Below are positions 3,886 through 26,700 of a DNA stretch of 64,000 bases, in pieces. Source of the stretch: Candidatus Doudnabacteria bacterium (GTDB lineage: Bacteria; Patescibacteriota; Doudnabacteria; UBA920); contig CAVYGQ010000001.1 of the NCBI GenBank assembly GCA_963768175.1, positions 100,481-164,480 on the forward strand. The letters run 5' to 3'. The notes beneath the pieces were generated by a model. That model saw only the letters and a program-made list of their open reading frames with translations. It did not search any database and was not told the origin of the DNA. Position 1 is the first letter of the stretch. Each line of letters begins with the position of its first letter. A program made the position numbers and the translations under genes.

Positions 3886-5182
3886 TCACCAAACTTTTTA
3901 ACTCGCCGTTGTCCAAAAGCAAAACGTTTTGGCCGGCGGAGTCTATATAAAACTTTTTTACATCAGTCCCTTGGTAAAGCTGGTACTGGTTTTGGTTATC
4001 GCGCGTGTCCAGTTCTATGGCCATAAGCTTTTCGCCTTGGAAATAGAAAGCGTTGCCGATGGAATTTAAAATTTTAGGGTTGGTCAAAGTTTCGCTGCTG
4101 CGCGTGACAAAGTTTAAATTTTCGCCTAACGGGTCATAATAATCCAATTCGCCGGAATGAATTACGGATAAAAGGGAATCGCTGGGGTTAAAACTGAAGC
4201 CGGAAATATTGTCAGCAAGCTGCTGCATGCCGGAACTTACTGAGTAAAGCTTCGTATCTGCCAGCAGAAAAATTTCTTTTTCAAAAGTTACAAACAATAC
4301 GCCAAAGTTAAAGGCAGGCAGGGTATCGGCCAAGTCCTGGCTTACGGAAAAGGGCGCCTGGCTTACGAAGAGAGCGTAATTTTGGCCTTTTTGCTGGACA
4401 AAATACAGCGCTCCACCCTCGGGGGAAAAAGTTTTGACCCCGGAAAATAGGACAATTTTGGTTTTGGTTGCCGGGTTTATTGAATATAAAACATTGTTGC
4501 TTAAGGCGTAAAGCCCTCCGTCATCCCCGAATTGCAACTCAGGCAGTGTGCCAAATAGACTGCTTATGTCGTAAATTTCTCCCACGTTTTGGTTGAAAAT
4601 CAGCAAAACCGGGGAAGAGGTAGCGGCTTGGGAATTAGTAAGGGCAAAAATTTTTCCGGCTCCATCCTCGGCTAAAATTTTGTTTACGTTTTTTGGCAGG
4701 CTATAGGTTTGCGCGGCATCGGGATTATCTAAAACGGAAGTTACTAAGCCGCCTTTGGTCAAATAAATAAAATTTTTATCGTGGCTGTAAAAGTCCAAAA
4801 CTCCCTGGACCAGATTTTGAACCGAAGGATTTTTTAAAAATAAATAAATGTTGCCGAAAGAGGGGTTGGCCCAAGTTACCTGCCCGGCTTCAATAGTCAG
4901 CCTTTTGGTCCAATCTGAGTAGCCGGGTTTTTTTAAGCTGACCGTGTAACTGCCGGGCAAAAGGAAGGTCAGGTCCCCCTGGCTTTGGCGTTTTTGTTGG
5001 CCGTCCAAAAAGATCGCCGCGTCTTGGGGGTTGCTGCGCACCGCTAAAATTCCGGTCTGAACAAAACTCTTGCTGTCAAAATCAAAGCCGACGCCTTTTA
5101 CGTAAAGCACAATTATCGGAGCGGCTATGAGGAAAAAAATAAAACCTATAGCGATAATAAAATAACGGCTTTTTCTGGTCAT
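3878..5182 (-). CDS. Membrane-anchored PEGA-domain protein with beta-rich extracellular region
   Basis: It has an N-terminal TM helix and a PEGA-like segment (ILAVRSNPQDAAIFLDGQ...PGSYTVSLKKPGYSDW). No catalytic motifs were seen. Confidence 0.5.
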   Translation of the reverse strand: MTRKSRYFIIAIGFIFFLIAAPIIVLYVKGVGFDFDSKSFVQTGILAVRSNPQDAAIFLDGQQKRQSQGDLTFLLPGSYTVSLKKPGYSDWTKRLTIEAGQVTWANPSFGNIYLFLKNPSVQNLVQGVLDFYSHDKNFIYLTKGGLVTSVLDNPDAAQTYSLPKNVNKILAEDGAGKIFALTNSQAATSSPVLLIFNQNVGEIYDISSLFGTLPELQFGDDGGLYALSNNVLYSINPATKTKIVLFSGVKTFSPEGGALYFVQQKGQNYALFVSQAPFSVSQDLADTLPAFNFGVLFVTFEKEIFLLADTKLYSVSSGMQQLADNISGFSFNPSDSLLSVIHSGELDYYDPLGENLNFVTRSSETLTNPKILNSIGNAFYFQGEKLMAIELDTRDNQNQYQLYQGTDVKKFYIDSAGQNVLLLDNGELKSLVIR

Positions 5183-5357: not shown

Positions 5358-6365
5358 ATGTTTGAAACGAAAATCGGCATAGATTTGGGCACGGCCAATA
5401 CTTTGGTTTACGTGCCCAAGCGGGGGATTATTATTAACGAGCCAACCGTGGTTGCCATTTCTTTGGAGGACAACCGTATTTTGGCAGTGGGGCAGGAAGC
5501 TAAGGAAATGCTCGGCCGCACTCCGGAGACGATTGTCGCCTCGCGCCCCATGAAAGACGGCGTAATTGCCGACTACCGCGTAACCGAAGCTATGCTCCGC
5601 TATTTTATCAATAAGGCTTTGGGCAACATCAGGTTTTTTAGGCCCGAGGTTATGATTTCCGTTCCGGGAGGGATTACTTCTACGGAAAGAAGGGCGGTTG
5701 TGGATGCGGCGCTCGCGGCCGGCGCCAAGGCGGCCTACGTGATAAAGGAAACCGTGGCCGCGGCTATTGGCGCGGGGATTCCCATAGCCGAAGCCAGGGG
5801 CAATTTGGTCATTGATGTCGGCGGCGGTACTACGGACGTGGCGGTATTATCTTTGGGCGGAATAGTTAATTCCACTTCCGTGCGCGTGGCCGGCAACCGG
5901 CTGGACCAGGCCATAGTGGATTTTGTCAGGAGAAAACACAGCTTGGCCATTGGTGACCGCACGGCCGAGGAAATTAAAATTACCATCGGCAGCGCCGTAA
6001 TTCTAAATGAAGAAGAACTTATGGAAGTTAAGGGCCGCGATATGATTTCCGGCTTGCCTAAAACCGTTACGGTTGCCTCTAACGAGGTGGTTCAGGCCAT
6101 TACCGAGGATCTTTTGGAAATTGCCAAGGCGGTAAAAACCGTGCTTCAGGATACCCCGCCGGAACTGGCTTCGGATATTATAGACAAAGGCATGGTTTTA
6201 ACGGGCGGAACGGCACTGTTGCGCAATATAGATCATTTTATTTCCCAGAGCGTGGGCGTTCCCTGTTTTGTGGCCGAAGATCCGCTTTTGTCCGTAGCCA
6301 AAGGTACGGGCGTGGCTTTGGATAACCTTGATAGTTATAAAAAGAGCATTTTAAGCGCGAAATAG
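5358..6365 (+). CDS. mreB: Rod shape-determining protein MreB (actin-like ATPase)
   Basis: The N-terminus IGIDLGTANTLVYV, the phosphate-binding motifs and the 335-aa length are typical of MreB. Confidence 0.95.
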   Translation: MFETKIGIDLGTANTLVYVPKRGIIINEPTVVAISLEDNRILAVGQEAKEMLGRTPETIVASRPMKDGVIADYRVTEAMLRYFINKALGNIRFFRPEVMISVPGGITSTERRAVVDAALAAGAKAAYVIKETVAAAIGAGIPIAEARGNLVIDVGGGTTDVAVLSLGGIVNSTSVRVAGNRLDQAIVDFVRRKHSLAIGDRTAEEIKITIGSAVILNEEELMEVKGRDMISGLPKTVTVASNEVVQAITEDLLEIAKAVKTVLQDTPPELASDIIDKGMVLTGGTALLRNIDHFISQSVGVPCFVAEDPLLSVAKGTGVALDNLDSYKKSILSAK

Positions 6366-6444
6366 GATTTTTTTGTAATTTGATTAAAATTTAAAATTAT
6401 CCTATAATAAAAACAAATCAATTTAAAATCCGAAACAAAAATAT

Positions 6445-6915
6445 ATGGCAAGGAAATCTTTGTATCTATTTTTGGCCGCTCTTTTAGGGACGCTTTTGTT
6501 TTTGATTGCCCATCAGGTAGTGTATTTTATTTACATTTACATGCTTAGCGCGGGGCTTGTAACCACCGGTATGAGCTATGTGGAATTTTTGGCCATTGAA
6601 TACTTTACCCTGACTATTACCCTTTTGCTCGGCGCGTGGTATGGTATTTGGCTGGGCCTTTATTGGTACGAAAAAGTTTATGAAGAAAAAAGCCATAAGG
6701 GTTTTGTGCACCATGTGGCGGTTAACTATTTTCCCGGCCCCAAACCTAAAGCTCCGGAAAGCCAAATGGCCCAAGTCAAGGAGCGTCTGGAGGAAAATTT
6801 GTGGCGACTGGAAGATTTGGCCAAAAGTGAAGCAAGTTTGCCGCCCATGGTTGAGCCGGAGCCAATTAAGTGTAGGGTTGTGCGTAAGCGCGCGCCAAAG
6901 AAGTTACAACAGTAG
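6445..6915 (+). CDS. Hypothetical membrane protein
   Basis: Several TM helices are followed by a charged C-terminus. No recognisable motifs were found. Confidence 0.4.
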   Translation: MARKSLYLFLAALLGTLLFLIAHQVVYFIYIYMLSAGLVTTGMSYVEFLAIEYFTLTITLLLGAWYGIWLGLYWYEKVYEEKSHKGFVHHVAVNYFPGPKPKAPESQMAQVKERLEENLWRLEDLAKSEASLPPMVEPEPIKCRVVRKRAPKKLQQ

Positions 6916-7089
6916 GCTTACGCGTTAGACAAATAATAGTGTTCGACCTTGTGGAGAACCTATTATTTGTCATAATTCCTTAAGCTTTTTTAGAAAAATA
7001 TCTTCTCCACAAGGTCGAAGGATATTTTTCTAACGATAGTTTCGTGAAATGCGTGAGTGCCGTTTAGTTTCAAATAATTTGATGTCTCC

Positions 7090-17016: not shown

Positions 17017-17412
17017 ATGTTAAAAGCTTTAGCTTTAGATAATTTTTGGTCGTCTCTTCCAAGGCGTAAAATTTCCGGCATACATACAATCAAGAAAACC
17101 GAAAGCCGCTACAGCATTTTTAGGTTTTGGTTTTCAATTTCCCTAATTGTTGTAAACGTTTTTTTGCTGATGAGTTATATTTATGGCGTTAATCAGTTCG
17201 CCAATACCGGATACCAGATTGCCGTTTTACAAAAACAGTTAACTAATCTAAACGACAGTAATAAAGCCATTACCTTGCAGGTTTCCGAAGCTTCATCCAT
17301 GGTGCAAATCCAAAATGACTTTTTAAGCGCTAATTTTGTTCCTGCCGGAACGCCAAAGTTTTTGCGGGTTTCGCAGGTTGCGGAAAGACAGTTTTTTGGG
17401 GGTGGTAATTAG
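17017..17412 (+). CDS. ftsL: FtsL-like cell-division protein (septum formation initiator)
   Basis: It lies between rsmH and ftsI and has a single TM helix followed by a coiled-coil (AVLQKQLTNLNDSNKAITLQ). Confidence 0.55.
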   Translation: MLKALALDNFWSSLPRRKISGIHTIKKTESRYSIFRFWFSISLIVVNVFLLMSYIYGVNQFANTGYQIAVLQKQLTNLNDSNKAITLQVSEASSMVQIQNDFLSANFVPAGTPKFLRVSQVAERQFFGGGN

Positions 17413-17564
17413 TTGTTAGTTTTAGGGGCCAGCGTTGTAGAAATTAATTTGTTGTAAGTTATAAAGACCAGTGTAGTCGTAAGGAATAAGTTGTAAAGTT
17501 CTTAAAACATATACTTATTACCACACTGGTTTCTACAACTTATAACCTATAACCGCCCCCAATC

Positions 17565-19298
17565 ATGGTCCGCAAAATAGTCCAAAGTTCTTTCAACCGC
17601 AGAAGCAGTTTTTTAACTGCTTTTTTATTGCTGTGTTTTGCCGCCATTGTCTGCAGGCTGTTTTATCTGGAAGTAATCCACGGCGCCCAGGCCAGGCAGG
17701 AAGCCGACTTGCAGCACAGCATCTATCAGAAATTATTTCCCAGCCGCGGGGAAATTAAGCTGGCTGATAAATTTTCCGGGCAGACCGTTCCGGTGGCCAC
17801 CAATACTAAGAGTTATTTGGTTTACGCCGTGCCAAGCGATATTTTAAACGCCAACTTAACCGCTAACAGCCTCGCGTTCGTGCTGGGGCTTGATCCCAAA
17901 GAGATTTTGGCAAAAATTACCGCAACCGACAAAAAATACGTGCCGTTAAAAAAACAGCTTACGGATACGGAGCAGCAAAAAATTAAAGATTTGGCTTTGC
18001 CGGGAATTTATTTTGACTCCGAAGACACGCGCGTCTATCCGCAGAATAATTTGTTAAGCCAGACTTTGGGCTTTGTGGGCTTCAACGCGGCGGGGCAAAA
18101 GGCCGGCCTGTATGGGCTGGAAAGATATTTTGACAAAGACTTGGCCGGCACGCCGGGAGAACTGGTGGCCGAAAAAGATCCCTCGGGAGCGCAAATTTTT
18201 GGCGCGACCATGAATGTTACGCCTGCGCAGGACGGTGTAGACTTAATTTTGACCGTGGACAAGACTATCCAGTTTCAGGTTCAAAGCGTACTGCAGACAA
18301 TGGTTACCAAAAATGGCGCCGACAGCGGCGATGTAATAGTCATGAACCCCAAAACCGGCGCGATTTTGGCCATTGCCAGCTATCCGGATTTTGACCCGAA
18401 TAACTATGGAAAAGTTACGGATCCTTCGGTGTTCAACAACCAGGCCGTGACCGGCACCTATGAGCCCGGTTCCACCTTTAAAGCCATTACTCTGGCCGCG
18501 GCTTTGGATGAAGGGAAAATTACTCCGGATACGACTTATACCGACACCGGCAAGGTTTCGGTGGATAATTATGTAATTAAAAATGCCGAACCGGGCGCGC
18601 GCGGCGTCCAGAGTATGACCCAGGTTTTGGATTGGTCTTTAAATACGGGGGCGATTTTCGCGGAAAATCAGCTAGGCAATCCGGACTTTTTAAAATACGT
18701 GCAAAACTTCGGTTTCGGCAAACTTACCGGAATTGAACTGCCGGAAGCCAAGGGCGACATAAGCGGGCTTAACGGTAACATCGCGGTCAATTATGACACC
18801 GTAAGTTTCGGCCAGGGGATTTTGGTAACTCCTCTGCAAATGCTCCAGGCTTACGGCGCTTTGGCCAACGGCGGGAAAATGATGAGGCCATATATTGTGC
18901 AGTCAAAAATTTATCCCGACGGGACGATAAAAAATACCCAACCGCAGGCGGCCGGACAGGTTGTCTCCCAGCAGACCGCCGCTACCATAGACGCCATGCT
19001 GGTGGACGTGGTGGAAAACGGTTATGGGAAAGAGGCTAAAGTTCCGGGTTATTATATAGCGGGAAAAACAGGAACGGCGCAGGTGGCGCAAAACGGCAAA
19101 TACATAATTAACGACAACATCGGCTCATTCATCGGTTTTGCGCCGGTGGAAAATCCGCAGTTCGTAATGCTAATAAGGGTTGACCATCCGCGCAACGCCA
19201 GCTTTGCCGAAAGCACAACCGTACCGCCCTGGGGGCAGCTGGCGCAGTTTATTTTAAATTATATGCAAATCCCGCCGACAAGGGCGGCGGGGAAATGA
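17565..19298 (+). CDS. ftsI: Peptidoglycan D,D-transpeptidase FtsI / PBP (class B)
   Basis: An N-terminal TM helix and PBP dimerisation domain are followed by a transpeptidase domain with STFK, SxN (SLN) and KTGT motifs. Confidence 0.9.
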   Translation: MVRKIVQSSFNRRSSFLTAFLLLCFAAIVCRLFYLEVIHGAQARQEADLQHSIYQKLFPSRGEIKLADKFSGQTVPVATNTKSYLVYAVPSDILNANLTANSLAFVLGLDPKEILAKITATDKKYVPLKKQLTDTEQQKIKDLALPGIYFDSEDTRVYPQNNLLSQTLGFVGFNAAGQKAGLYGLERYFDKDLAGTPGELVAEKDPSGAQIFGATMNVTPAQDGVDLILTVDKTIQFQVQSVLQTMVTKNGADSGDVIVMNPKTGAILAIASYPDFDPNNYGKVTDPSVFNNQAVTGTYEPGSTFKAITLAAALDEGKITPDTTYTDTGKVSVDNYVIKNAEPGARGVQSMTQVLDWSLNTGAIFAENQLGNPDFLKYVQNFGFGKLTGIELPEAKGDISGLNGNIAVNYDTVSFGQGILVTPLQMLQAYGALANGGKMMRPYIVQSKIYPDGTIKNTQPQAAGQVVSQQTAATIDAMLVDVVENGYGKEAKVPGYYIAGKTGTAQVAQNGKYIINDNIGSFIGFAPVENPQFVMLIRVDHPRNASFAESTTVPPWGQLAQFILNYMQIPPTRAAGK

Positions 19299-19329
19299 TT
19301 TTGAAATAATAATGCTTGTTATTTTAAAA

Positions 19330-19360
19330 TCATCCCCGCGAAAGCGGGGATCTTTATTTA
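19330..19360 (+). terminator. Rho-independent terminator after ftsI
   Basis: The hairpin catccccgcgaaagcggggatc is followed by tttattt. Confidence 0.7.
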
Positions 19361-19413
19361 AGAATAAGATTCCGGATATTTTTGGTATCAATGCAAAAAT
19401 TCCGGAATGACAT

Positions 19414-19791
19414 TTACTGTCCCAGTTCCTGAATTTGCTGGGGGGTGATTTTTTCAATTTGGCTCATATTCGCCCCGGTGCCGGCAAACAACAATTTCAT
19501 GCCAACGGCATACAGCAAAATGGATACGGCGGTTAAGGTTACGCACATCCAGGCAACATCACGCGCGTCGTCTTCGTCGCTGAAAAAATATTTCAGCGCG
19601 AACAGCAGGCCAAAAGGCGGCACTCCGATGGAAATCAAATATGCCCATTTTTTCCATTTGCCGGGGACTTTATTTTTGTCTTCATTCTGCAGCGCGTTTA
19701 ACATCAGCATCCCCACGTCCACATTGGGGTTGTCTTTGGCAACGCTTTGGTATAAATCTACTTTTTTTTCAAGATCTTTGTCCGGATCCAT
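19414..19791 (-). CDS. Hypothetical membrane protein
   Basis: Two TM helices follow a charged N-terminus. The overlapping plus-strand ORF at 19445-19795 looks low-complexity and is likely spurious. Confidence 0.4.
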   Translation of the reverse strand: MDPDKDLEKKVDLYQSVAKDNPNVDVGMLMLNALQNEDKNKVPGKWKKWAYLISIGVPPFGLLFALKYFFSDEDDARDVAWMCVTLTAVSILLYAVGMKLLFAGTGANMSQIEKITPQQIQELGQ

Positions 19792-19907
19792 ATAGTTTAA
19801 TTATACCATTTTTTAATAAAACTAAAAAACCGTCCTTTTGGGCAGTTTGGCTGGCCTTATTTGACTTAATCGGAGCTGAAATAGCTAGACTTATAAATAT
19901 TCCTTAA

Positions 19908-20537
19908 TTACTGGCAATTTTCATTTTTACTATGGGACACGACTTTTGCAAGGTCAGTTAAACCAATAAAAAATCCAGAATCAGATTTTTGAGAGCTAGC
20001 AATATAATTTTGGATTTCAGGATTTTTGCTCGTAATTCCAATAAAATAGGAAAATGAATCGCACAAATCTGGCTCGCTTAATAAACCCTCATCGTATGAA
20101 CTCTCAACAGTATCAAATTCTCCAAGATAATTATCAAGTTGTGCGTCTGTATACTGCCCGTGATTTTCTGTTAGTATGGGTTGCTTGCTCTCAATAGCGT
20201 CAATAATTTTTGTATTTGTATTATTGAAAAAAGCAGAATTTAAAGCGATGTTGTTCTCTGAAGCAGTTTGTTTTTTTGCATCATCAATAAGAACATAGGT
20301 CATAATAACTAGAATGACTGTAAAAGTCACTAAAGCCCAAGTAAGATACAAAAGCCTTTTTGAATATTTATCGCTACTGTTACTAAAATTTATTATATTG
20401 GTATTCAGTTCTTTTATGCCACCTCCAAGATTCCGCAATTCTATTACTGTCGTTTTCATCCTATCGTTAGTTGTTGCGGCTAAATCACGGTCTATACCGT
20501 TACCAGTTTTTATTTCTTTAAATTCATCTTCTCCCAT
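19908..20537 (-). CDS. Hypothetical single-pass membrane protein (island cargo)
   Basis: A ~60-aa cytoplasmic N-terminus and one TM helix precede an Asn/Ser-rich extracytoplasmic domain. The gene is AT-rich and is the last gene of a three-gene minus-strand operon. Confidence 0.45.
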   Translation of the reverse strand: MGEDEFKEIKTGNGIDRDLAATTNDRMKTTVIELRNLGGGIKELNTNIINFSNSSDKYSKRLLYLTWALVTFTVILVIMTYVLIDDAKKQTASENNIALNSAFFNNTNTKIIDAIESKQPILTENHGQYTDAQLDNYLGEFDTVESSYDEGLLSEPDLCDSFSYFIGITSKNPEIQNYIASSQKSDSGFFIGLTDLAKVVSHSKNENCQ

Positions 20538-20561
20538 AAATAAATTTAAAATTCAGGATAG

Positions 20562-21026
20562 CTATTTTTTCTTTAAAATTATCTCCGCCAAAATTTTAGA
20601 ATCCTCTTTTTTTAATTTCAGCTTTCCGTCTGGTTTTGTTTCTCCCTGATTACCCATTTGAGATTGGGAGGCAGTCCAAATACTTATCTCTGACAGACCA
20701 AATGTGCCTAGCAACGCTCCAGTTTTCACATTGACATTTTGGACTTTATCAAACGGCATTATTTTACTGCTCTTGGCTACGACGCCGCTGTTTATTGTTA
20801 TTTTGTCATCATCAAAAACAAAAGTTATAGCGTGATTTTCAATCATTAAAATAATAAAAATTGGTAGCACTAGAATAATAAAAAAGCCCCAAAAAATACC
20901 CCAAAAACTGGAATTAGGAATAAAGGAAAAAATCAGGGCAAATATCAAGGCCATTATTACCAGAGTAGTAAACTGATACCACTTTAAAATTTTAGGCAAA
21001 TGATTCAATTCATTTTTATTGAGCAT
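20562..21026 (-). CDS. Membrane protein with bacterial PH domain (DUF304/YdbS-like)
   Basis: Two N-terminal TM helices are followed by a PH-like segment (ITFVFDDDKITINSGVVAKSSKIMPFDKVQNVNVKTGALLGTFG). Confidence 0.5.
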   Translation of the reverse strand: MLNKNELNHLPKILKWYQFTTLVIMALIFALIFSFIPNSSFWGIFWGFFIILVLPIFIILMIENHAITFVFDDDKITINSGVVAKSSKIMPFDKVQNVNVKTGALLGTFGLSEISIWTASQSQMGNQGETKPDGKLKLKKEDSKILAEIILKKK

Positions 21027-21085
21027 TAGTTTGTGGACTTAATTTTAATTACAAATTCCGCTTATATTACACACCTTTTAAAAAT

Positions 21086-21706
21086 TTATGCGAACTGTTG
21101 CAACTGTCCTAAAATGGCCTGTTCCAGCTGAACAGTATCATAATGGCGTTGAGGCTTGATGTGTAAAATATTTAACTCTGAGGCTCTCAAAGCCCCGTCT
21201 AAAAAATCATCTCTTAATTTTCTATTGAAATAATTATGGGTATAATCATCCAGTTCAATAACCAAAAGTGGCGACAAATAAACTTTGTCAAAGATTACAA
21301 AATCTACTGTCTTTTTGTTTATCCTGTTAAAGTTGCTGTAAGTGGAATTTGTGCCGTATCTTTCCAGTCCGCCTTGGACTTCAATGATTCGGGATAAGGC
21401 AACCTGTGGCATAATAAAATACCTGTCCTTGATTATTTCCTGTAGCACTCCGAAAAACTTGTATTCGGTTTGGGTCATCAGGTATCGCTTTTTTCTGAAT
21501 GGATAAATTTTATCGTCTTTTTTTACTTCCTGAATTTTTGTATTGCCAGCATTACTAGGCGGTAAAGGTATCTCGGAATAATTTTGCTTTGAGCTTTTTA
21601 TGATGTAACTGGCAAGAATGATTATGATTATTAAACCAAATAAAAAATCCATAAATTTGCTTTTAGAAACACAAAGCCCCGGTCCAGCCGGGCTTTTACA
21701 CCCCAT
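21086..21706 (-). CDS. DUF2726-domain protein (NERD/restriction-endonuclease-like fold), membrane-anchored
   Basis: An N-terminal TM helix precedes the DUF2726 signature (TVDFVIFDKVYLSPLLVIELDDYTH ... RDDFLDGAL...LNILHIK). Confidence 0.55.
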   Translation of the reverse strand: MGCKSPAGPGLCVSKSKFMDFLFGLIIIIILASYIIKSSKQNYSEIPLPPSNAGNTKIQEVKKDDKIYPFRKKRYLMTQTEYKFFGVLQEIIKDRYFIMPQVALSRIIEVQGGLERYGTNSTYSNFNRINKKTVDFVIFDKVYLSPLLVIELDDYTHNYFNRKLRDDFLDGALRASELNILHIKPQRHYDTVQLEQAILGQLQQFA

Positions 21707-22000
21707 ACCCCTTTCGGGATATGACCATAAGACAGTAGCTGAACGCGGGGTTCAGTATGTCTTATGGTTTTACAGCCGTGCCTGATTAAAGGTTTAGGCC
21801 ATTCAGTTGTGATTAAATTATACCAAACTTGACAACAATTTTAAAGGGGTGTATGGTGGAGTTAGTTCATTAAAAAGTTAATAATTAAACGTAAGTTTTA
21901 TTTCTCCTCCCTCGGAGTAAGACAGGGGCTATGCCGTTTTGAACACAAAAACGGTGTGGCGTTTTGACCGCTTGTCTCAGCCATTAGAGGCCTTACAAAA

Positions 22001-22207
22001 GTGTTTGTGGGGTTTAATATGTCTGGGTTCAGTAATGAGCTAAAACAGCGTTTAATTGATTATTTTCAAACGAAATACGGACAAAAACTAACCTCAGAAC
22101 AAGCTGAGGCTTTTTTATTGTCCCTTGCGAATCTGTATTCGCTGGTGGTAGAGCGGCGGGCGGGCCCGCAGGGCCAGCCCGACCGCCGCTCTACCTGTAT
22201 TACTTGA
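22001..22207 (+). CDS. Small hypothetical protein upstream of the recombinase (possible accessory or directionality factor)
   Basis: The 68-aa ORF ends in a GC-rich hairpin (gagcggcgggcgggcccgcagggccagcccgaccgccgctc). No motifs were recognised. Confidence 0.25.
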   Translation: MFVGFNMSGFSNELKQRLIDYFQTKYGQKLTSEQAEAFLLSLANLYSLVVERRAGPQGQPDRRSTCIT

Positions 22208-22322
22208 ATTAAGCTACACATAAGGGGATTTAATAATTACATAATTAATTTTAAGTTCTGTCAAAATAATTTGTATTTTTCTTTTGGTTAGATATATAAT
22301 CAAGCTAATTAAAAAATCAAAT

Positions 22323-23792
22323 ATGAAATATATAATCTACACCCGTAAATCATCCGAGGCCTCTGACCGCCAAGTCCTGTCCATTGAATCGCAGGAAAAT
22401 GAGTTATTGGCTTTGGCTGATAGGAATGGGGCTAAGGTTGGTAAAATATTCCGTGAGAGTATGTCAGCCAAACAGCCAGGCCGTCCTGAATTTGAAAAAT
22501 TAATAAAACTGATTGAACAAAATCCCTGCTCTGTGCTATTCGTCTGGAAACTTGACCGCCTCGCTCGTAACCCCGTTGATGAGGGTAAAATTAAGTGGCT
22601 CCTGCAAAACAAGACCATAGCCCAAATTATTACGCCTGACAGAATTTATAATCCCAATGACAATGCCTTAATCGCTTCTGTGGAATTTGGAATGGCTAAT
22701 CAGTATATTCGTGATTTATCGTCCAATGTAAAACGAGGCAATAGGACTAAACTTCAAAAAGGTGAAATGCCTGGTGCGGCTCCTATCGGCTACTTGGATA
22801 ATCCCTTAACCAAATTAAAAACTATTGACGCTCTAAAAGCTCCACTGATAAAACAAGCATTTGAACTTTATGCGACTGGGGCATACAGCTTAAAAACAGT
22901 TGGTAAAATGATTGAGACTTCAGGCCTTAGAAGTAAACTCGGCAATCCTCTAAAAAAAGCCATACTGCACCATATGTTTACAAATCCTTTTTACTACGGA
23001 GCCATTAGGCATAATGGAGAAATATATCAAGGAGTTCACGAGCCAATTATTTCCAAAACATTATTTGATACAGTGCAATATGTCTTAAGCGGTAAAACCC
23101 GCCCTAAAAAACAAAAACACTTCTTCCCTGTTAGAGGCTATATGCTCTGTCATTCCTGCGGCTGTCTGCTTACTGCCACAACTAAAAAAGGCCATTCATA
23201 TTATTATTGCACTAATGGCAAAGGCAACTGCCAACAACACAAAAAATATTTAAGAGATAAAGCCGTGGACAAACTCGTGGCTAAAACCTTAAACGAAATT
23301 AAATTTGATACCTCAATGATTGAAATGGCTTATCTCGCTTACAAGGAAAAAATCCTAAATGGCAACGATAATTCTCAAACTAGAAAATCTGAACTCTCCT
23401 TACAGCTCAAATCTGAACAGGACAAGCTCTCTAATCTCGCCAAGGTTATTTCCTCTAAGCCGACACTCGCTAACTCCCTAGAGGCTGAAATTTTATCTCT
23501 AGAGGTAAAGATTAAATCCATTGAGCAACAGATTAAGCAAACTGACAAACAGACCCTCCAGGAGCAATTATTTACTTTGGAACAAACAAAAAAGGCCTTT
23601 TTACAGGCCAGTTCCGCATCTTTTGACTATTTGGATAGCGATGATTACCAAAAATTTGAACTGCTAAAAAATTTACTTTGGAACCTCAAGGTAGAAAATC
23701 AGAAAGTCCAACAATATCAGTTCAAAAGTTATTATCAACTTATGGCTGAAAGCCCTAAAAACCTTCAAATTTCTGGTTGGCTGGGGTGGTAG
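22323..23792 (+). CDS. Large serine recombinase (resolvase/invertase catalytic domain, recombinase domain, zinc ribbon)
   Basis: The N-terminus YIIYTRKSSEASDRQVLSIESQ carries the catalytic Ser, with a Cys cluster (CHSCGC...C) and a C-terminal coiled-coil. The likely start is the ATG at 22323. The 3' end overlaps a tRNA-Gln-derived repeat. Confidence 0.85.
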   Translation: MKYIIYTRKSSEASDRQVLSIESQENELLALADRNGAKVGKIFRESMSAKQPGRPEFEKLIKLIEQNPCSVLFVWKLDRLARNPVDEGKIKWLLQNKTIAQIITPDRIYNPNDNALIASVEFGMANQYIRDLSSNVKRGNRTKLQKGEMPGAAPIGYLDNPLTKLKTIDALKAPLIKQAFELYATGAYSLKTVGKMIETSGLRSKLGNPLKKAILHHMFTNPFYYGAIRHNGEIYQGVHEPIISKTLFDTVQYVLSGKTRPKKQKHFFPVRGYMLCHSCGCLLTATTKKGHSYYYCTNGKGNCQQHKKYLRDKAVDKLVAKTLNEIKFDTSMIEMAYLAYKEKILNGNDNSQTRKSELSLQLKSEQDKLSNLAKVISSKPTLANSLEAEILSLEVKIKSIEQQIKQTDKQTLQEQLFTLEQTKKAFLQASSASFDYLDSDDYQKFELLKNLLWNLKVENQKVQQYQFKSYYQLMAESPKNLQISGWLGW

Positions 23793-23803
23793 GATTCGAA
23801 CCT
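23778..23803 (-). repeat. Partial copy of the tRNA-Gln 3' end (candidate att-site direct repeat)
   Basis: tggctggggtggTaggattcgaacct matches the 3' 26 nt of tRNA-Gln at 26228-26253 with one mismatch. Confidence 0.6.
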
Positions 23804-23931
23804 TATTAGGTCTAGAACCAAACCCTTTTAATTATGGCCATAAATGTCCTTTAATATAAGTTGGGGCAATTTAGTTTCCAAAAGTATAAAGTGCTATACT
23901 ATAATTAAATAGATTATTATAGTATATAACT

Positions 23932-24639
23932 ATGGGGAAATATCCAAAAATTAAATTTATTATTGATTTTAAAGAAGACAAAAAAAATGCGCTGAGATTT
24001 TTAGGAGATACTAATGAATGGAAAAAGGAGCGTTTTTTTCCGTCTGAGTTACAATATGTTCTACAGAATAAATTAGCACAGAAAGAAAAACAAAGGATTG
24101 TTAATAACTTTGTTAAACAGTATTTTTTAAAAAATGAGTTTGAAATTAAAATTGGGGTAAGAGCAATTGCAAATGAATGGATGTCGATTGGAAGGTATTT
24201 TTTTGATCTAGTTGACAAGCTATTTTACGACCACCCTTGGCCAAAAGGAAACTACGTGGGATATGCAAGTATTTTTAATATGTTTCCTAGAGATATTGAG
24301 AAAAAAACCTTTTCATTTCCATATCGGAAGGAAGATGTCAGTTGGGCAATAAAAGTGATAGCCCATGAAATGTTACACTTTATTTTTTTTGACTATTTAA
24401 ATAAAGTGTATAGGTATACTCAAAATACCCAAATAAAAAATAAAAATTCAAACTTCATTTGGCAATTATCAGAGGCTCTAAACAATATAATAGAAAATTC
24501 GCGATCATACCGTAAGGTCATACCAATAAAAAAATTGAGCAAGCCATATCCAGGAAACGAAAAAATTTATAAAAAACTACTGGCCCAATGGAATAAAAAA
24601 AACGATATAAAAAAGTTATTGGATAGCGCTTTAGGGTAA
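23932..24639 (+). CDS. Hypothetical protein with an HExxH motif (possible zinc-dependent hydrolase)
   Basis: It has an IAHEMLH motif and an AT-rich composition. No other similarity was recognised. Confidence 0.45.
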   Translation: MGKYPKIKFIIDFKEDKKNALRFLGDTNEWKKERFFPSELQYVLQNKLAQKEKQRIVNNFVKQYFLKNEFEIKIGVRAIANEWMSIGRYFFDLVDKLFYDHPWPKGNYVGYASIFNMFPRDIEKKTFSFPYRKEDVSWAIKVIAHEMLHFIFFDYLNKVYRYTQNTQIKNKNSNFIWQLSEALNNIIENSRSYRKVIPIKKLSKPYPGNEKIYKKLLAQWNKKNDIKKLLDSALG

Positions 24640-24796
24640 ATAAAACGGAGCCCCAATCTTGGAAGAGAGGGGCTCCGCTACGATAGCGGCAGGAACGAGT
24701 CCTTGCCTAGGCGCAGTCGTAACCGCTGTTGACAGGTACCCCAAATTCTAGACACTTAGTCTGAGGTATAATAAGGCTAGAAAGGAATCTAACTTT

Positions 24797-25063
24797 ATGC
24801 CCAAAGGCAAATACAAAGTCAGTCCGGAAGTTAAAACTCAAATTCTAAAACGAATTAAGGAAGAAGGTGTCAGCGTCACCCAGGCGGCCGAGGAGCACGG
24901 CCTGTCCACCCAAACCATTTACGGCTGGATAGCCAAAGGGGTTACAGCTCCGCCGTCCGTGCTTGAACTCTCCCGCCTGAAGCGGGAAAATCAAACCCTC
25001 CACGAGATTATCGGCCGGCTGACAGTCAAACTGTCATTGGCGGAAAAAAAGGACATTGGTTGA
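24797..25063 (+). CDS. IS3 transposase OrfA (HTH plus leucine zipper)
   Basis: An HTH (VSVTQAAEEHGLSTQTIYGW) and a heptad-Leu C-terminus are present. The gene ends inside an A7G run at 25044-25051. Confidence 0.85.
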   Translation: MPKGKYKVSPEVKTQILKRIKEEGVSVTQAAEEHGLSTQTIYGWIAKGVTAPPSVLELSRLKRENQTLHEIIGRLTVKLSLAEKKDIG

Positions 25064-25895
25064 AGACCTGTCCGCCGCTATGCACCTTGAAAATCCGACT
25101 AAGACCGAGTTGGCCAGGAGCTTGGGAGTCAGCAGAGCCAGTCTGTATTACGAACCTACCCTGCCGCAAAAAGACTGGCTCCTTAAAATCCGCATTGAAC
25201 AAACCCTGCATGACCACCCCAGCTACGGCCACAAACGGCTGGCTCCGGCGCTACATGTTAACAAGAAAAGAATCCGGCGCACCATGAGGCTGTTTGGTAT
25301 TAAGCCTTACCGCAGGACAGGCAGAAAGCTAAGAAAAGCAAGGGATTTGGGACAAATTTCCGCTCCTTACCAAAACTGGCTGATGCTGATTCCGTTTCCA
25401 GAAGAGCCGGGAATTGTCTGGGTCAGTGACTTTACCTACATATCATTCCACGGCCGGTTTGTTTACCTGGCGACGATAATAGATTTATTCACCAGGGAGG
25501 TTGTCGGCTGGTCAGTCTGGACCGCGCATAGCAGCCAGCTAGTTCTACTGGCTTTAATTGACGCACTGGAAAAACATCCGGCGGCCAAATATCTCCATTC
25601 CGACCAGGGGCAAGAATACAAATCCCGAACCTACTGTAGGCTGGCCGAACAGGCCGGTATTACAATTTCCATGAGCCACAAATCATCACCGTGGGAGAAC
25701 GGCTACCAAGAATCCTTTTATGGCAAGCTCAAGACTGACTTAGGTGATCCGGGGAGGTTTAAGACCTTGGGAGAGCTAACGGCCGAAATTTACCTCCTCA
25801 TCTACAGCTACAACCACGACAGAATCCATACATCATTAAAAATGCCGCCGTCAGCATTTGCCGACCGGCAGCGGAATCAAGTATCATTAACTTAA
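25023..25895 (+). CDS. IS3 transposase OrfB (DDE integrase core), frame open from 25023 and overlapping orfA by 41 nt
   Basis: An rve-type DDE core is present (WVSDFTYI ... HSDQGQEY ... with a downstream E). It lies in the +1 frame relative to orfA. Confidence 0.85.
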   Translation, partial: QSNCHWRKKRTLVEDLSAAMHLENPTKTELARSLGVSRASLYYEPTLPQKDWLLKIRIEQTLHDHPSYGHKRLAPALHVNKKRIRRTMRLFGIKPYRRTGRKLRKARDLGQISAPYQNWLMLIPFPEEPGIVWVSDFTYISFHGRFVYLATIIDLFTREVVGWSVWTAHSSQLVLLALIDALEKHPAAKYLHSDQGQEYKSRTYCRLAEQAGITISMSHKSSPWENGYQESFYGKLKTDLGDPGRFKTLGELTAEIYLLIYSYNHDRIHTSLKMPPSAFADRQRNQVSLT

Positions 25896-26141
25896 CCTTA
25901 AAAAACCGCAGAGAAGGTGCCTAAAGAAATGGGTACCTTACAGGGGAAATTTCTTTCAGCTCTGTATAAAATTTAGCTATTAAAAGACAAAAAAGTGTAC
26001 CTGGAATGAAGTAGGACTTCGAACCAAGATAAACAATAGTTTAGACAAAAATAAGAGCATGGACTAAAATTCATGCTCTTATTTTCTATAAGTTCTTGTC
26101 CTTTAACTTAGGGTTGGTAGGTCTGTAGGAACCAAAATTTC

Positions 26142-26205
26142 TGGCTGCCCGGGTTGGATTCGGACCAACGCATGGAGGCTCCAAAGGCCCCCTTGCCCCG
26201 CACCA
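26142..26205 (-). other. Degenerate tRNA-Gln-like remnant (pseudo-tRNA)
   Basis: tggctgcccgggttggattcggaccaacgcatggaggctccaaaggccc... parallels the tRNA-Gln 3' two-thirds, including the CTTTGGAG anticodon region. The acceptor stem cannot pair and the length is only ~64 nt. Confidence 0.4.
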
Positions 26206-26227
26206 ATTTTTAACAAATTTATTCTCT

Positions 26228-26302
26228 TTGGCTGGGGTGGCAGGATTCGAACCTGCGAATGGCGCCTCCAAAGGGCGCTGCCTTACCACTTGGCGACACC
26301 CC
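26228..26302 (-). tRNA. tRNA-Gln (anticodon UUG)
   Basis: The minus strand reads UGGGGUGUCGCCAAGUGGUAAGGCAGCGCCCUUUGGAGGCGCCAUUCGCAGGUUCGAAUCCUGCCACCCCAGCCA. It folds as a cloverleaf with U1-A72, a 7-nt anticodon loop CUUUGGA and an encoded CCA. It is close to E. coli tRNA-Gln. Confidence 0.9.
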
Positions 26303-26439
26303 AAAATAAGACAACTAAGGTATATTATAAAATAAATTCGGGAAAAAAGAAAGCCCAACCTTGAGTATGGGGAGCTTGCGGAATTTGCGTTTGACAGCCA
26401 AAATGTGCTATAATTTCTTTAGGATTAATCCCTAAATTT

Positions 26440-26700
26440 ATGTCCAATGTAACCCTTGAGGGCATTGCCGCCCTTCTTAAGGTAGAGCTCGATCCAATCA
26501 GAGAAACCCTCGTTGAGCATACTAAAATTTTAACTGAGCATACTAAAATTCTTTCTATGCACACGGCGGCCCTTGACCAATTGCTCACAGAAAAAAAGAA
26601 CAGAGACGACAACAAAACGGTTGGTGATGGCCGCCTTGATTACCTCGAAAAATGGGCAAAGCAAGTCAGCCAGAAATTTGGAATTGAGTTTAAACCATAG
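26440..26700 (+). CDS. Hypothetical small protein (coiled-coil-like)
   Basis: It contains a repeated EHTKIL heptad-like segment. A TTGACA / TGtGcTATAAT promoter-like sequence lies upstream at 26391-26418. Confidence 0.3.
   Translation: MSNVTLEGIAALLKVELDPIRETLVEHTKILTEHTKILSMHTAALDQLLTEKKNRDDNKTVGDGRLDYLEKWAKQVSQKFGIEFKP

Follow-up and report, generated by a model that had tools for sequence, protein, structure and literature searches.

In the window, that is, the whole stretch of 64,000 nucleotides of Candidatus Doudnabacteria DNA analysed here, positions 19847–26303 form an insertion hotspot downstream of a tRNA-Gln(UUG) gene and hold two inserts. The left one, element A (19847–23784, ~3.93 kb, GC 0.36), comprises a large serine recombinase (LSR) gene and, beyond a divergent promoter region, a cargo operon of three genes; the right one, insert B, adjoins the tRNA. 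The composite hotspot of mobile DNA is real, and a tRNA island as such is of a known kind. What goes beyond the routine is a recombinase open reading frame (ORF) that would be split by integration across a large Patescibacteria LSR clade, and the orphan LOOT RNA as a promoter-proximal pseudoknot leader linked to LSR elements. The features of element A and of its tRNA target are:

19807–19846: B arm, native flank on the downstream side of the tRNA; a weak hairpin and a T-run in it are terminator-like in the tRNA orientation
19847–19854: attL core TTGGCTGG, antisense of ..CCAGCCAA, the CCA end of the tRNA
19855–19907, plus strand: P' arm, the displaced 3' end of the LSR ORF (ALFDLIGAEIARLINIP, then stop), from the reading frame of the reconstructed attP
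19908–20537, minus strand: third cargo gene, TM209, a 209-aa single-pass membrane protein with one transmembrane helix and no Pfam family
20562–21026, minus strand: second cargo gene, a bPH_2 (formerly DUF304) membrane protein (PF03703, E = 1.4e-11)
21086–21652 (ORF to 21706), minus strand: first cargo gene, a DUF2726 protein with an N-terminal membrane anchor (PF10881, E ~7e-28 to 9e-28)
21668–21689, minus strand: 3' extension of LOOT beyond the Rfam model, the 3' strand of a pseudoknot (21688–21676) and then a U-rich tract CUUUGUGUUU
21690–21800, minus strand: LOOT RNA (Rfam RF03000), 111 nt, 70.3 bits against a gathering threshold of 46.4, E = 3.5e-11
21817–21857: back-to-back promoter-like sites between LOOT and the LSR gene
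22001–22207, plus strand: small ORF of 68 aa without a family match, of doubtful coding status
22323–23792, plus strand: LSR in its integrated, C-terminally swapped form, 489 aa (PF00239, PF07508, PF13408)
23777–23784: attR core TTGGCTGG, from the comparison of junctions with sister elements
23778–23803, minus strand: 26-nt 3' fragment of a tRNA-Gln, the B' arm, whose opposite strand encodes the final LSR codons W-L-G-W-stop
26229–26303, minus strand: intact tRNA-Gln(UUG), found by ARAGORN and Rfam (64.4 bits)

A sequence-only reading of this DNA had described an AT-rich island of ~6.5 kb at tRNA-Gln with a serine recombinase. Such an island was indeed found, with the LSR element restricted to the left block 19847–23784 and not extending over the whole 6.5 kb. 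Acquisition at tRNA-Gln is supported by gene content, which diverges past m125, the last core gene before the insertions, and by two relatives with an LSR beside tRNA-Gln. The GC content is low for 19856–23803 (0.364) and for 23804–24700 (0.308), against 0.44–0.447 in the flanks on both sides; for the whole 6.5 kb the description is not quite true because the IS3-family insertion sequence is richer in GC (0.494). The tRNA-Gln had been assigned to the correct strand and, at 26228–26302, one base off its true position. Its 3' end does recur, over 26 nt and with one mismatch, at 23778–23803; there was no such match in 100 dinucleotide shuffles, and the copy overlaps the LSR gene as described, the stop codon (23790–23792) falling inside it; the direct repeat reaches 33 nt at 91% identity (23771–23803 versus 26222–26254). 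We also recovered the degenerate tRNA-Gln-like copy from 26142 (26142–26187 and beyond; 74% identical to the tRNA). The idea of multiple integration events is in line with these copies of the tRNA and of the att junction, and with the separate ends of the LSR element. Pfam bore out the gene content (DUF2726, bPH_2, LSR, IS3), and an ORF bearing the motif HEMLH is present. The LOOT RNA at 21690–21800 had not been listed.

Attachment sites and the split recombinase gene

The LSR carries an N-terminal resolvase domain with the Ser/Arg motif (PF00239, E = 2.5e-20, residues 4–148; YTRKSSEASDRQ at the N-terminus), together with a Recombinase domain (PF07508, E = 2e-14) and a zinc ribbon (PF13408, Zn_ribbon_recom, 25.6 bits against a cut-off of 25.3), and it matched the integrase family phrog_95 (E = 2e-76). 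A protein identical to it is on record (P0039), though the exact-protein look-up gave none. Homologues with names stem from Doudnabacteria, Parcubacteria and Patescibacteria; no relatives were found in IMG/VR. The closest homologues (65–69% identity) were traced to three contigs, L332, L333 and L334, which carry sister elements.

Comparison with these elements delimited element A. The core TTGGCTGG is repeated at both ends (19847 and 23777), accompanied by a conserved P' arm, and the attL core is its sole copy between 19300 and 23700. From the LSR/tRNA junction the core (8–10-mer) recurs once, 4–5 kb leftward and at an intergenic position left of the LSR gene, in all three (window 19847, L332 1865, L333 3406). 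The left end of element A is marked by this 8-nt core rather than by a long tRNA repeat. Other LSR elements likewise showed no long tRNA-derived direct repeats at their far ends, which is what one expects of serine recombinases. The attL junction is not an assembly artefact, because it is spanned by an independent Logan contig (L001, ERR10755942) that is 100% identical to 19825–21762.

The final 17 codons of the LSR sit at the far end of the element, at 19855–19907. Over the reconstructed attP (P arm, core and P' arm), the LSR frame of the window runs on as ..ISGWL-ALFDLIGAEIARLINIP-stop, i.e. ..ISGWLALFDLIGAEIARLINIP-stop. The same reconstruction gave ..NDWL-ALFDQVGTEINK.. (WLALFDQVGTEINK..) in L333 and ..SNWL-GLWDKVGAVLIINF-stop, with WLGLWDKVGAV.., in L332. 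The P' arm is conserved and reads, in the LSR frame, WL-ALFDLIGAE in the window, WL-ALFDQVGTE in L333 and WL-GLWDKVGAV in L332, the differences among the three being mainly at third codon positions or conservative. In P0051, a 64% identical protein of 518 aa from a 4375-bp contig, the same tail is uninterrupted and ends ..LSDWLALFDQVGTYITLNSG.. / ..DWLALFDQVGTYITLNSG... The LSR ORFs of L332 and L333 (67–69% identical to the window LSR) reach 30 and 12 nt into an intact tRNA-Gln(CTG) of convergent orientation and stop there, at the place where the window has the 26-nt fragment. Judged by these alignments, their layout is what the window must have looked like before LSR and tRNA became separated.

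Tails of this kind are widespread. Among the 120 best LSR homologues, 62 carry tails with D-S-N-like motifs, as encoded by the antisense of the T-loop GGTTCGAATCC, and 41 stop within a few codons past the Trp encoded by the CCA antisense, so that tRNA-antisense tails altogether make up ~86%; native-type tails (e.g. LAVWDDIRT) were seen in 10 and other tails in 7. At nine further loci the LSR ORF enters an intact convergent tRNA, of various specificities, by 15–87 nt.

We concluded from these comparisons that recombinases of this clade have their predicted attP within the 3' end of their own coding sequence, the predicted attB spanning the CCA end of a tRNA gene. An attP inside the ORF explains why the LSR stop overlaps the tRNA fragment, and it implies that integration splits the ORF. 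At the level of sequence, the alignments establish both the ends of element A and its split ORF. The LSR would recombine the attP inside its ORF with an attB over the CCA end of tRNA-Gln, at the common core TTGGCTGG. Integration would thereby swap the last ~17 codons: the integrated copy would end in two tRNA-antisense codons (..WLGW-stop), and the native 17-codon tail (ALFDLIGAEIARLINIP-stop) would be stranded at the opposite end of the element beside attL. Excision would rejoin both, giving an LSR of 506 aa. The reconstructed attP joins 23737–23784 to 19855–19894, and the reconstructed attB joins 19807–19854 to 23785–23803 and the rest of the tRNA. As a serine integrase the LSR would use a 2-bp crossover for attP and attB; the junctions of three sister elements share an 8-nt core. 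Element A is thus a putatively complete and intact minimal integrative element moved by the LSR; that it is mobile today, and which dinucleotide serves as crossover, we infer.

Some further observations concern these sites and their relatives. The ends of the Logan contig (19825 and 21762) were considered as excision junctions and rejected, the contig reaching 22 nt beyond the core into the chromosomal flank; it ends inside the P2 region of LOOT, and LOOT segments common to several elements may break the assembly graph. A pseudo-symmetry of the attP half-sites (TCAAAT/ATTTGA), noticed by eye in the window, was not kept in L333 and was not used. In sister elements a Rep protein (REP_ORF2-G2P, rolling-circle type) is encoded directly upstream of the LSR (L332 3586–4419; L334); no Rep is encoded in the window element. 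In L334 there is, in addition, a Shedu-type SduA_C gene (Rep and SduA_C at 6232–7032 and 4041–5174). In LOOT loci L135/L153 (7779–9371) and L216, native-type tails (..ILDDVRTLWL.., ..ALDSIRTQWL..) are retained by LSRs of 530–565 aa, although the contig of L135 is 145 kb long; these LSRs are possibly non-integrated or differently integrated copies.

The LOOT RNA and the cargo operon

LOOT is associated with LSR genes. A pattern scan of metagenome contigs yielded at least 120 LOOT loci, all but two of which were true LOOTs; all counts of LOOT loci given here are among the matches listed. With a profile built from LSR matches, an LSR gene was found in 49 of 121 loci. At 100 bits or more, it was found in 43 of 120, which corresponds to 60/Mb, compared with 1.6/Mb in 79 FtsI loci (mostly Patescibacteria) and 1.0/Mb in unrelated viral loci; the enrichment around LOOT is ~40-fold (120 loci). 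In 12 loci a same-strand LSR gene precedes LOOT, with its stop codon 27–89 nt before the RNA begins. LOOT is divergent from the LSR within 200 nt in 7 loci and farther away in 21 more, as in the window. The LSRs directly adjoining LOOT are a separate clade of ~440 aa with an intact conserved C-terminus.

The C-terminus of that clade reads ..EKRELL..LKNK..LEK-stop (loci L215, L168, L125, L165, L167, L210, L219, L166/L228, L214 and L136). Several of them continue past LOOT with one or two cargo ORFs and then a convergent tRNA (Lys, Ser or Gly).

LOOT has a promoter-like site of its own. In the window a minus-strand site with TG (TTTAAA-17-TATAAT, 21845–21817) faces LOOT, its −10 box ending 17 nt upstream of the match, and a plus-strand site (TTGACA-17-TATGGT, 21829–21857) faces the small ORF and then the LSR. 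A −10-like box lies 2–22 nt (mostly 11–22) upstream of LOOT in 62 of 110 distinct loci, with 26.6 expected. On the other side, ORFs on the same strand start 40–130 nt past LOOT in ~65 loci. They are diverse and include Zn-ribbon membrane proteins, DUF4352, secreted nucleases, Excalibur, a C5-methyltransferase and a trypsin-like peptidase.

The RNA also extends beyond its Rfam model, with covarying pairs. The window LOOT spans the full model, positions 1–121. Past it we found a conserved tail, CUGGCG(G/C)(C/G)G(G/A)G-CUUUGUGUU, that forms a 13-bp helix with the apical part (loop side) of the long P2 hairpin; in the window the 5' strand of this helix is at 21751–21738 and the 3' strand at 21688–21676. 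Across the 107 LOOTs used for the covariation test, the helix was 88.5% paired, versus 37–49% with the partner strand slid, and showed 208 double-change cells versus 63 expected, a value attained in none of 500 shuffles. Pair types switch within the helix (CG:58/UA:37 at one pair, CG:45/GC:37 at another). G-U pairs are abundant, which argues for an RNA transcribed from this strand and not for a DNA structure. The tail pairs with bases that also belong to the apical P2 stem, which makes the pairing a pseudoknot or an alternative fold. The tail can further pair (at least 7 bp) with sequence 6–50 nt downstream in 46% of loci versus 14% of shuffles, and in the window it contains a local terminator-like hairpin (21692–21678).

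LOOT has been described as a metagenome-derived small RNA (sRNA) and, in the article texts, as an extreme case of 'cross-covariation' (Weinberg et al. 2017, PMC5737381; Rfam 14, PMC7779021). The pseudoknot or alternative fold may explain the cross-covariations reported in those texts. The literature searched, which for PMC5737381 means the article apart from its supplement, gave no function or gene context for LOOT. New here, relative to these articles, are the association with LSR elements, the promoter directly upstream and the covarying pseudoknot with its U-rich 3' tail past the Rfam model, some of which the original supplement may note.

A loose LOOT pattern gave 120 stretches on viral contigs, one of which (L004) passed the check for the 3' GAAA hairpin and was confirmed by Rfam. 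This LOOT (IMGVR_UViG_3300035698_033475, 5922–6043, 90.9 bits) is on a prophage-like contig, between a ParB-methylase/terminase block and genes for a trypsin-like peptidase, Hypoth_Ymh and a type I HsdM; an LSR and a tRNA-Ser are located at the start of the contig.

Most likely, LOOT would be a cis-acting leader that gates the expression of variable cargo in LSR elements. In the window, a sigma-70-like promoter divergent from the LSR would start a transcript whose first ~135 nt would comprise LOOT (111 nt) and its pseudoknot-forming tail. The transcript would then read into the three membrane-protein cargo genes.

The first of these, the DUF2726 gene, scored 97 bits (Pfam cut-off 24.7) and contains the motif E-L-D-D-x-x-H. 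It most likely starts at its second ATG (21652), because the first one (21706) falls inside LOOT and its tail. DUF2726 has a Vsr-like PD-(D/E)XK fold; an association of the domain with mobile elements has been noted, and so have fusions to AbiJ N-terminal domains (PMC3424549, PMC3710099). The protein in the window is accordingly annotated as an anchored protein of predicted nuclease fold. The bPH_2 gene is second after LOOT in locus L189 as well. TM209 has a conserved all-helical C-terminal domain with two conserved Cys. Its structure model gave generic matches only, and a PDB sequence search nothing significant (two chance-level matches, E at least 0.1). The ~28 full-length homologues of TM209 include cargo downstream of LOOT in an LSR element at a tRNA (L321–L323), neighbours of LSRs at tRNAs (L326, L328–L331) and one protein encoded among Mrr, NUDIX and HEPN_AbiV genes (L324).

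The spacings of 59 and 24 nt make the three genes one operon, directed outward toward attL. Neither DUF2726 nor bPH was found beside TM209 homologues in six other contexts examined, so the trio is a mosaic of exchangeable cargo and not a conserved system. The sequence-only reading had likened it to defence or abortive-infection modules. This did not hold up: eight proteins of the region had no family in PADLOC-DB v2 at E ≤ 0.01, and the trio is not conserved as a unit. A role of the cargo in defence or exclusion is possible and unsupported, and the functions given for the cargo are in general putative.

The small ORF between the promoter sites and the LSR gene contains a terminator-like hairpin (22092–22109) and, within an AT-rich region, a GC-rich 19-bp hairpin that is 95% complementary (22147–22195). 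Its position and the GC-rich hairpin are kept in L333, the proteins being dissimilar. It has no family in Pfam, PHROGs or NCBIfam and no homologue in any retrieved locus, including the 66-aa ORF of L333.

Insert B and the chromosomal surroundings

The remaining features of the hotspot and the gene at its left border are:

19414–19791, minus strand: m125, a small conserved membrane protein, the final core chromosomal gene ahead of the insertions
23804–26228: insert B, decayed, with an HExxH gene, IS3 and att/tRNA remnants
23932–24639, plus strand: AT-rich gene of the HExxH protein, 235 aa, with HEMLH and no Pfam family
24723–25946, plus strand: IS3-family insertion sequence (orfA 24797–25063, orfB 25056–25895)
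26011–26228: decayed junction remnants, copies of an A-like junction and of the tRNA

The HExxH protein is a probable minimal zincin-like metallopeptidase, as suggested by residue conservation: all 69 homologues are hypothetical proteins, the named ones from Patescibacteria groups, and H145, H149 and E181 are invariant and E146 nearly so. Its structure model is confident (predicted local distance difference test score, pLDDT, 95.8). Foldseek matches to catalytic domains of M1 aminopeptidases were non-significant, and a PDB sequence search gave none. One homologue, P0218, is fused to a Pyr_excise domain (PF03013, pyrimidine-dimer glycosylase).

The IS3 element is present in a single copy in the window and appears intact. 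Its orfA (HTH_Tnp_1) and orfB (rve, DDE domain) overlap; a slippery A-run lies near 25045, and the terminal inverted repeats are imperfect. No clear 3–4 bp target-site duplication was seen at the flanks around 24723 and 25946, where the exact ends of the element are uncertain. The organisation is usual for the family and nothing about it is unusual.

To its right lie a T-arm-like piece (26011–26025), a copy of the att junction (26111–26136), a P-arm-like AAATTTCTGG followed by a pseudo-tRNA-Gln (26127–26205) and, directly before the intact tRNA, a P-arm-like CAAATTTATTCTCTT (26214–26228). By analogy, this would be the expected pattern of repeated integration at one tRNA, older elements being pushed away and decaying. 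Insert B is probably the decayed remainder of one or more further elements that now separates element A from the intact tRNA.

On the chromosomal side, FtsL-FtsI-m125 (window 17017–19791) is syntenic in nine Doudnabacteria-like relatives, and directly past m125 the gene content differs. m125 follows FtsI in 7 of the 10 closest relatives (44–81% identity); it matched no family in Pfam, PHROGs or NCBIfam, and an exact-protein look-up gave no match. The best FtsI relatives (53–87% identity) are metagenome-assembled genomes labelled Candidatus Doudnabacteria, some being labelled Saccharibacteria, a label that is probably loose. Two of them, L242 and L243, carry tRNA-Gln(UUG) 1–1.6 kb past m125 and a different LSR (30–32% identity) just downstream. 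LSR elements have thus landed repeatedly at tRNA-Gln in this lineage. The LSR/tRNA-Gln(UUG) intervals are 13310–18101 in L242 and 13811–15290 in L243. L242 also has a LOOT (63 bits), ahead of a Zn-ribbon membrane protein gene. Relative L247 has a clear terminator after tRNA-Gln and no recombinase gene on its 4.7-kb contig. A clean empty site was not found among the relatives compared, which are species-level representatives with 53–87% FtsI identity and too distant for a true empty site to be demonstrable.

Three observations lie outside the island. Directly past ftsI, at 19288–19368, overlapping inverted repeats form a strong terminator-like hairpin (ATCCCCGCGAAAGCGGGGAT and a T-run), which is probably the terminator of the dcw cluster named in the sequence-only reading. 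Beside the tRNA, at 26440–26700, is an 86-aa ORF that contains an internal repeat (EHTKILTEHTKIL) and matched none of the families of Pfam, PHROGs and NCBIfam. A SAM (S-adenosylmethionine) riboswitch at 20950–21061 of L243 (62.6 bits), in a Doudnabacteria relative, is unrelated to the island.

Alternative explanations, known systems and meaning

A hotspot with an intact LSR element A, an attP in the LSR ORF, a LOOT cis leader and a decayed insert B is the best explanation as a whole, and we regard it as probable. Several points weigh against it. A regular-expression search of the flanks of nine more distant LSR loci found no displaced native tail; outside the sister group the distal tail was thus not located in the flanks examined. 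Neither an excised circle nor an empty attB of the same species was seen, nor was a recombination directionality factor found. That the P' arm is conserved could be due in part to its recognition as a DNA site by the LSR instead of to coding. The order of events allows for either an element A that arrived before insert B or one that used the displaced 26-nt fragment with the native flank as attB. The three sister elements have no LOOT, which makes it a feature of the cargo module that this LSR can do without. In Rfam, LOOT is classed as an sRNA gene, and the local terminator-like hairpin in the window tail would fit an independent sRNA equally well. LOOT might accordingly be no cis leader, acting instead as a stand-alone sRNA in trans or as an RNA working with the recombinase, for instance in the control of excision or directionality. 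Its own promoter and, in the window, the terminator-like hairpin with a U-tract at its 3' end would suit such a role, as would its position at most 200 nt from an LSR gene in 19 loci, 12 of them with LOOT 27–89 nt past the stop of a ~440-aa-clade LSR. Highly conserved junction nucleotides and GNRA loops moreover suggest a compact fold able to bind protein or ligand. Most loci, however, have a same-strand ORF at a short, fairly constant distance after LOOT, the alternative downstream pairing of the tail resembles an expression platform, LOOT is without long unpaired guide-like loops, and sister LSR elements function, or at least exist, without it. We find a role other than that of a cis leader unlikely.

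A dedicated anti-phage or abortive-infection system, in which a membrane-tethered nuclease would be under two membrane sensors, is an unlikely reading of the cargo trio. The restriction-endonuclease fold of DUF2726 and its fusions to AbiJ N-terminal domains speak for it, as do an operon carried on a mobile element, the TM209 homologue between Mrr/NUDIX genes and a HEPN_AbiV gene in L324, the Shedu SduA_C gene of sister L334, and the trypsin-like peptidase, Hypoth_Ymh and HsdM genes preceded by LOOT in L004. Against it, besides the absence of PADLOC matches for any of the three, TM209 homologues have other partners (269–296-aa proteins, NUDIX/S51 operons) and never DUF2726 or bPH in the six other contexts, and the first genes after 65 LOOTs belong to many unrelated families, most of their products being small and either secreted or in the membrane. 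A single island at 23804–26228, bounded by the 33-nt direct repeat in the style of a tyrosine integrase, with the LSR and the DUF2726 operon as mere chromosomal neighbours, seems to us highly improbable. Of all direct repeats in the region this one is the longest, and its two copies enclose the HExxH gene and IS3. The interval, however, encodes no integrase besides the IS3 transposase; the LSR block has ends of its own, core and displaced ORF tail, its GC is the lowest but one, and it is absent at this position in the closest relatives.

Returning to an LSR-moved element A, its recombinase shares the Resolvase, Recombinase and Zn ribbon domains with the serine integrases of phages and integrative and conjugative elements (phiC31, Bxb1, SPbeta, A118; SCCmec Ccr; XisF), the similarity to CcrB and XisF in NCBIfam being weak and far below the cut-offs. 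Like these, it has short att sites with a small common core and no long flanking direct repeats. In model serine integrases, as far as is known, attP is intergenic and attB is in protein-coding genes. Element A differs from them in an attP inside the recombinase ORF, in the replacement of a conserved C-terminal tail upon integration and in its target, the CCA end of a tRNA. SSV-type archaeal integrases, which are tyrosine integrases, do have attP in the coding sequence, and their int gene is partitioned upon integration; in Brujita-type mycobacteriophages, also tyrosine-integrase systems, integration strips a C-terminal tag from the repressor. The likeness is that integration alters a gene product; here a serine recombinase would swap its own C-terminus. 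A full-text literature search gave no description of an attP inside a recombinase ORF combined with a tRNA CCA end. Tycheposons of Prochlorococcus are small cargo elements at tRNA genes whose successive integrations displace older ones and leave partial tRNAs and degenerate elements, and 27 of 937 have a large serine recombinase (bioRxiv 10.1101/2020.12.28.424599). They resemble the window in carrying cargo at a tRNA and in older inserts pushed off it, and differ in the host phylum, in their mostly tyrosine recombinases and in att repeats of ~40 nt; a LOOT-type RNA and a split recombinase ORF are undescribed there.

As a single joint claim, which is possible and put forward tentatively, the clade may consist of two-form recombinases that use their own 3' coding end as attP and the tRNA CCA end as attB. 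A free form, with the conserved tail A(L/V)(W/F)D.(I/V)(G/R)T, and an integrated form, whose tail is tRNA-antisense junk, would then report the integration state, the tail swap would control directionality or stability, and LOOT would be a dedicated pseudoknot-switch leader for exchangeable cargo.

In conclusion, Patescibacteria (candidate phyla radiation) have tiny genomes, and their gene exchange is little understood. The 3.9-kb serine-recombinase element described here is exactly delimited, and its reconstructable attP and attB are directly testable and might serve as a tool. LOOT moves from an RNA without known biology to a concrete context of LSR elements, an own promoter and variable cargo, with an extended structure, which makes its function experimentally approachable. 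Hundreds of related public recombinase genes with tRNA-antisense tails point to a general architecture in which integration would rewrite the C-terminus of the recombinase.

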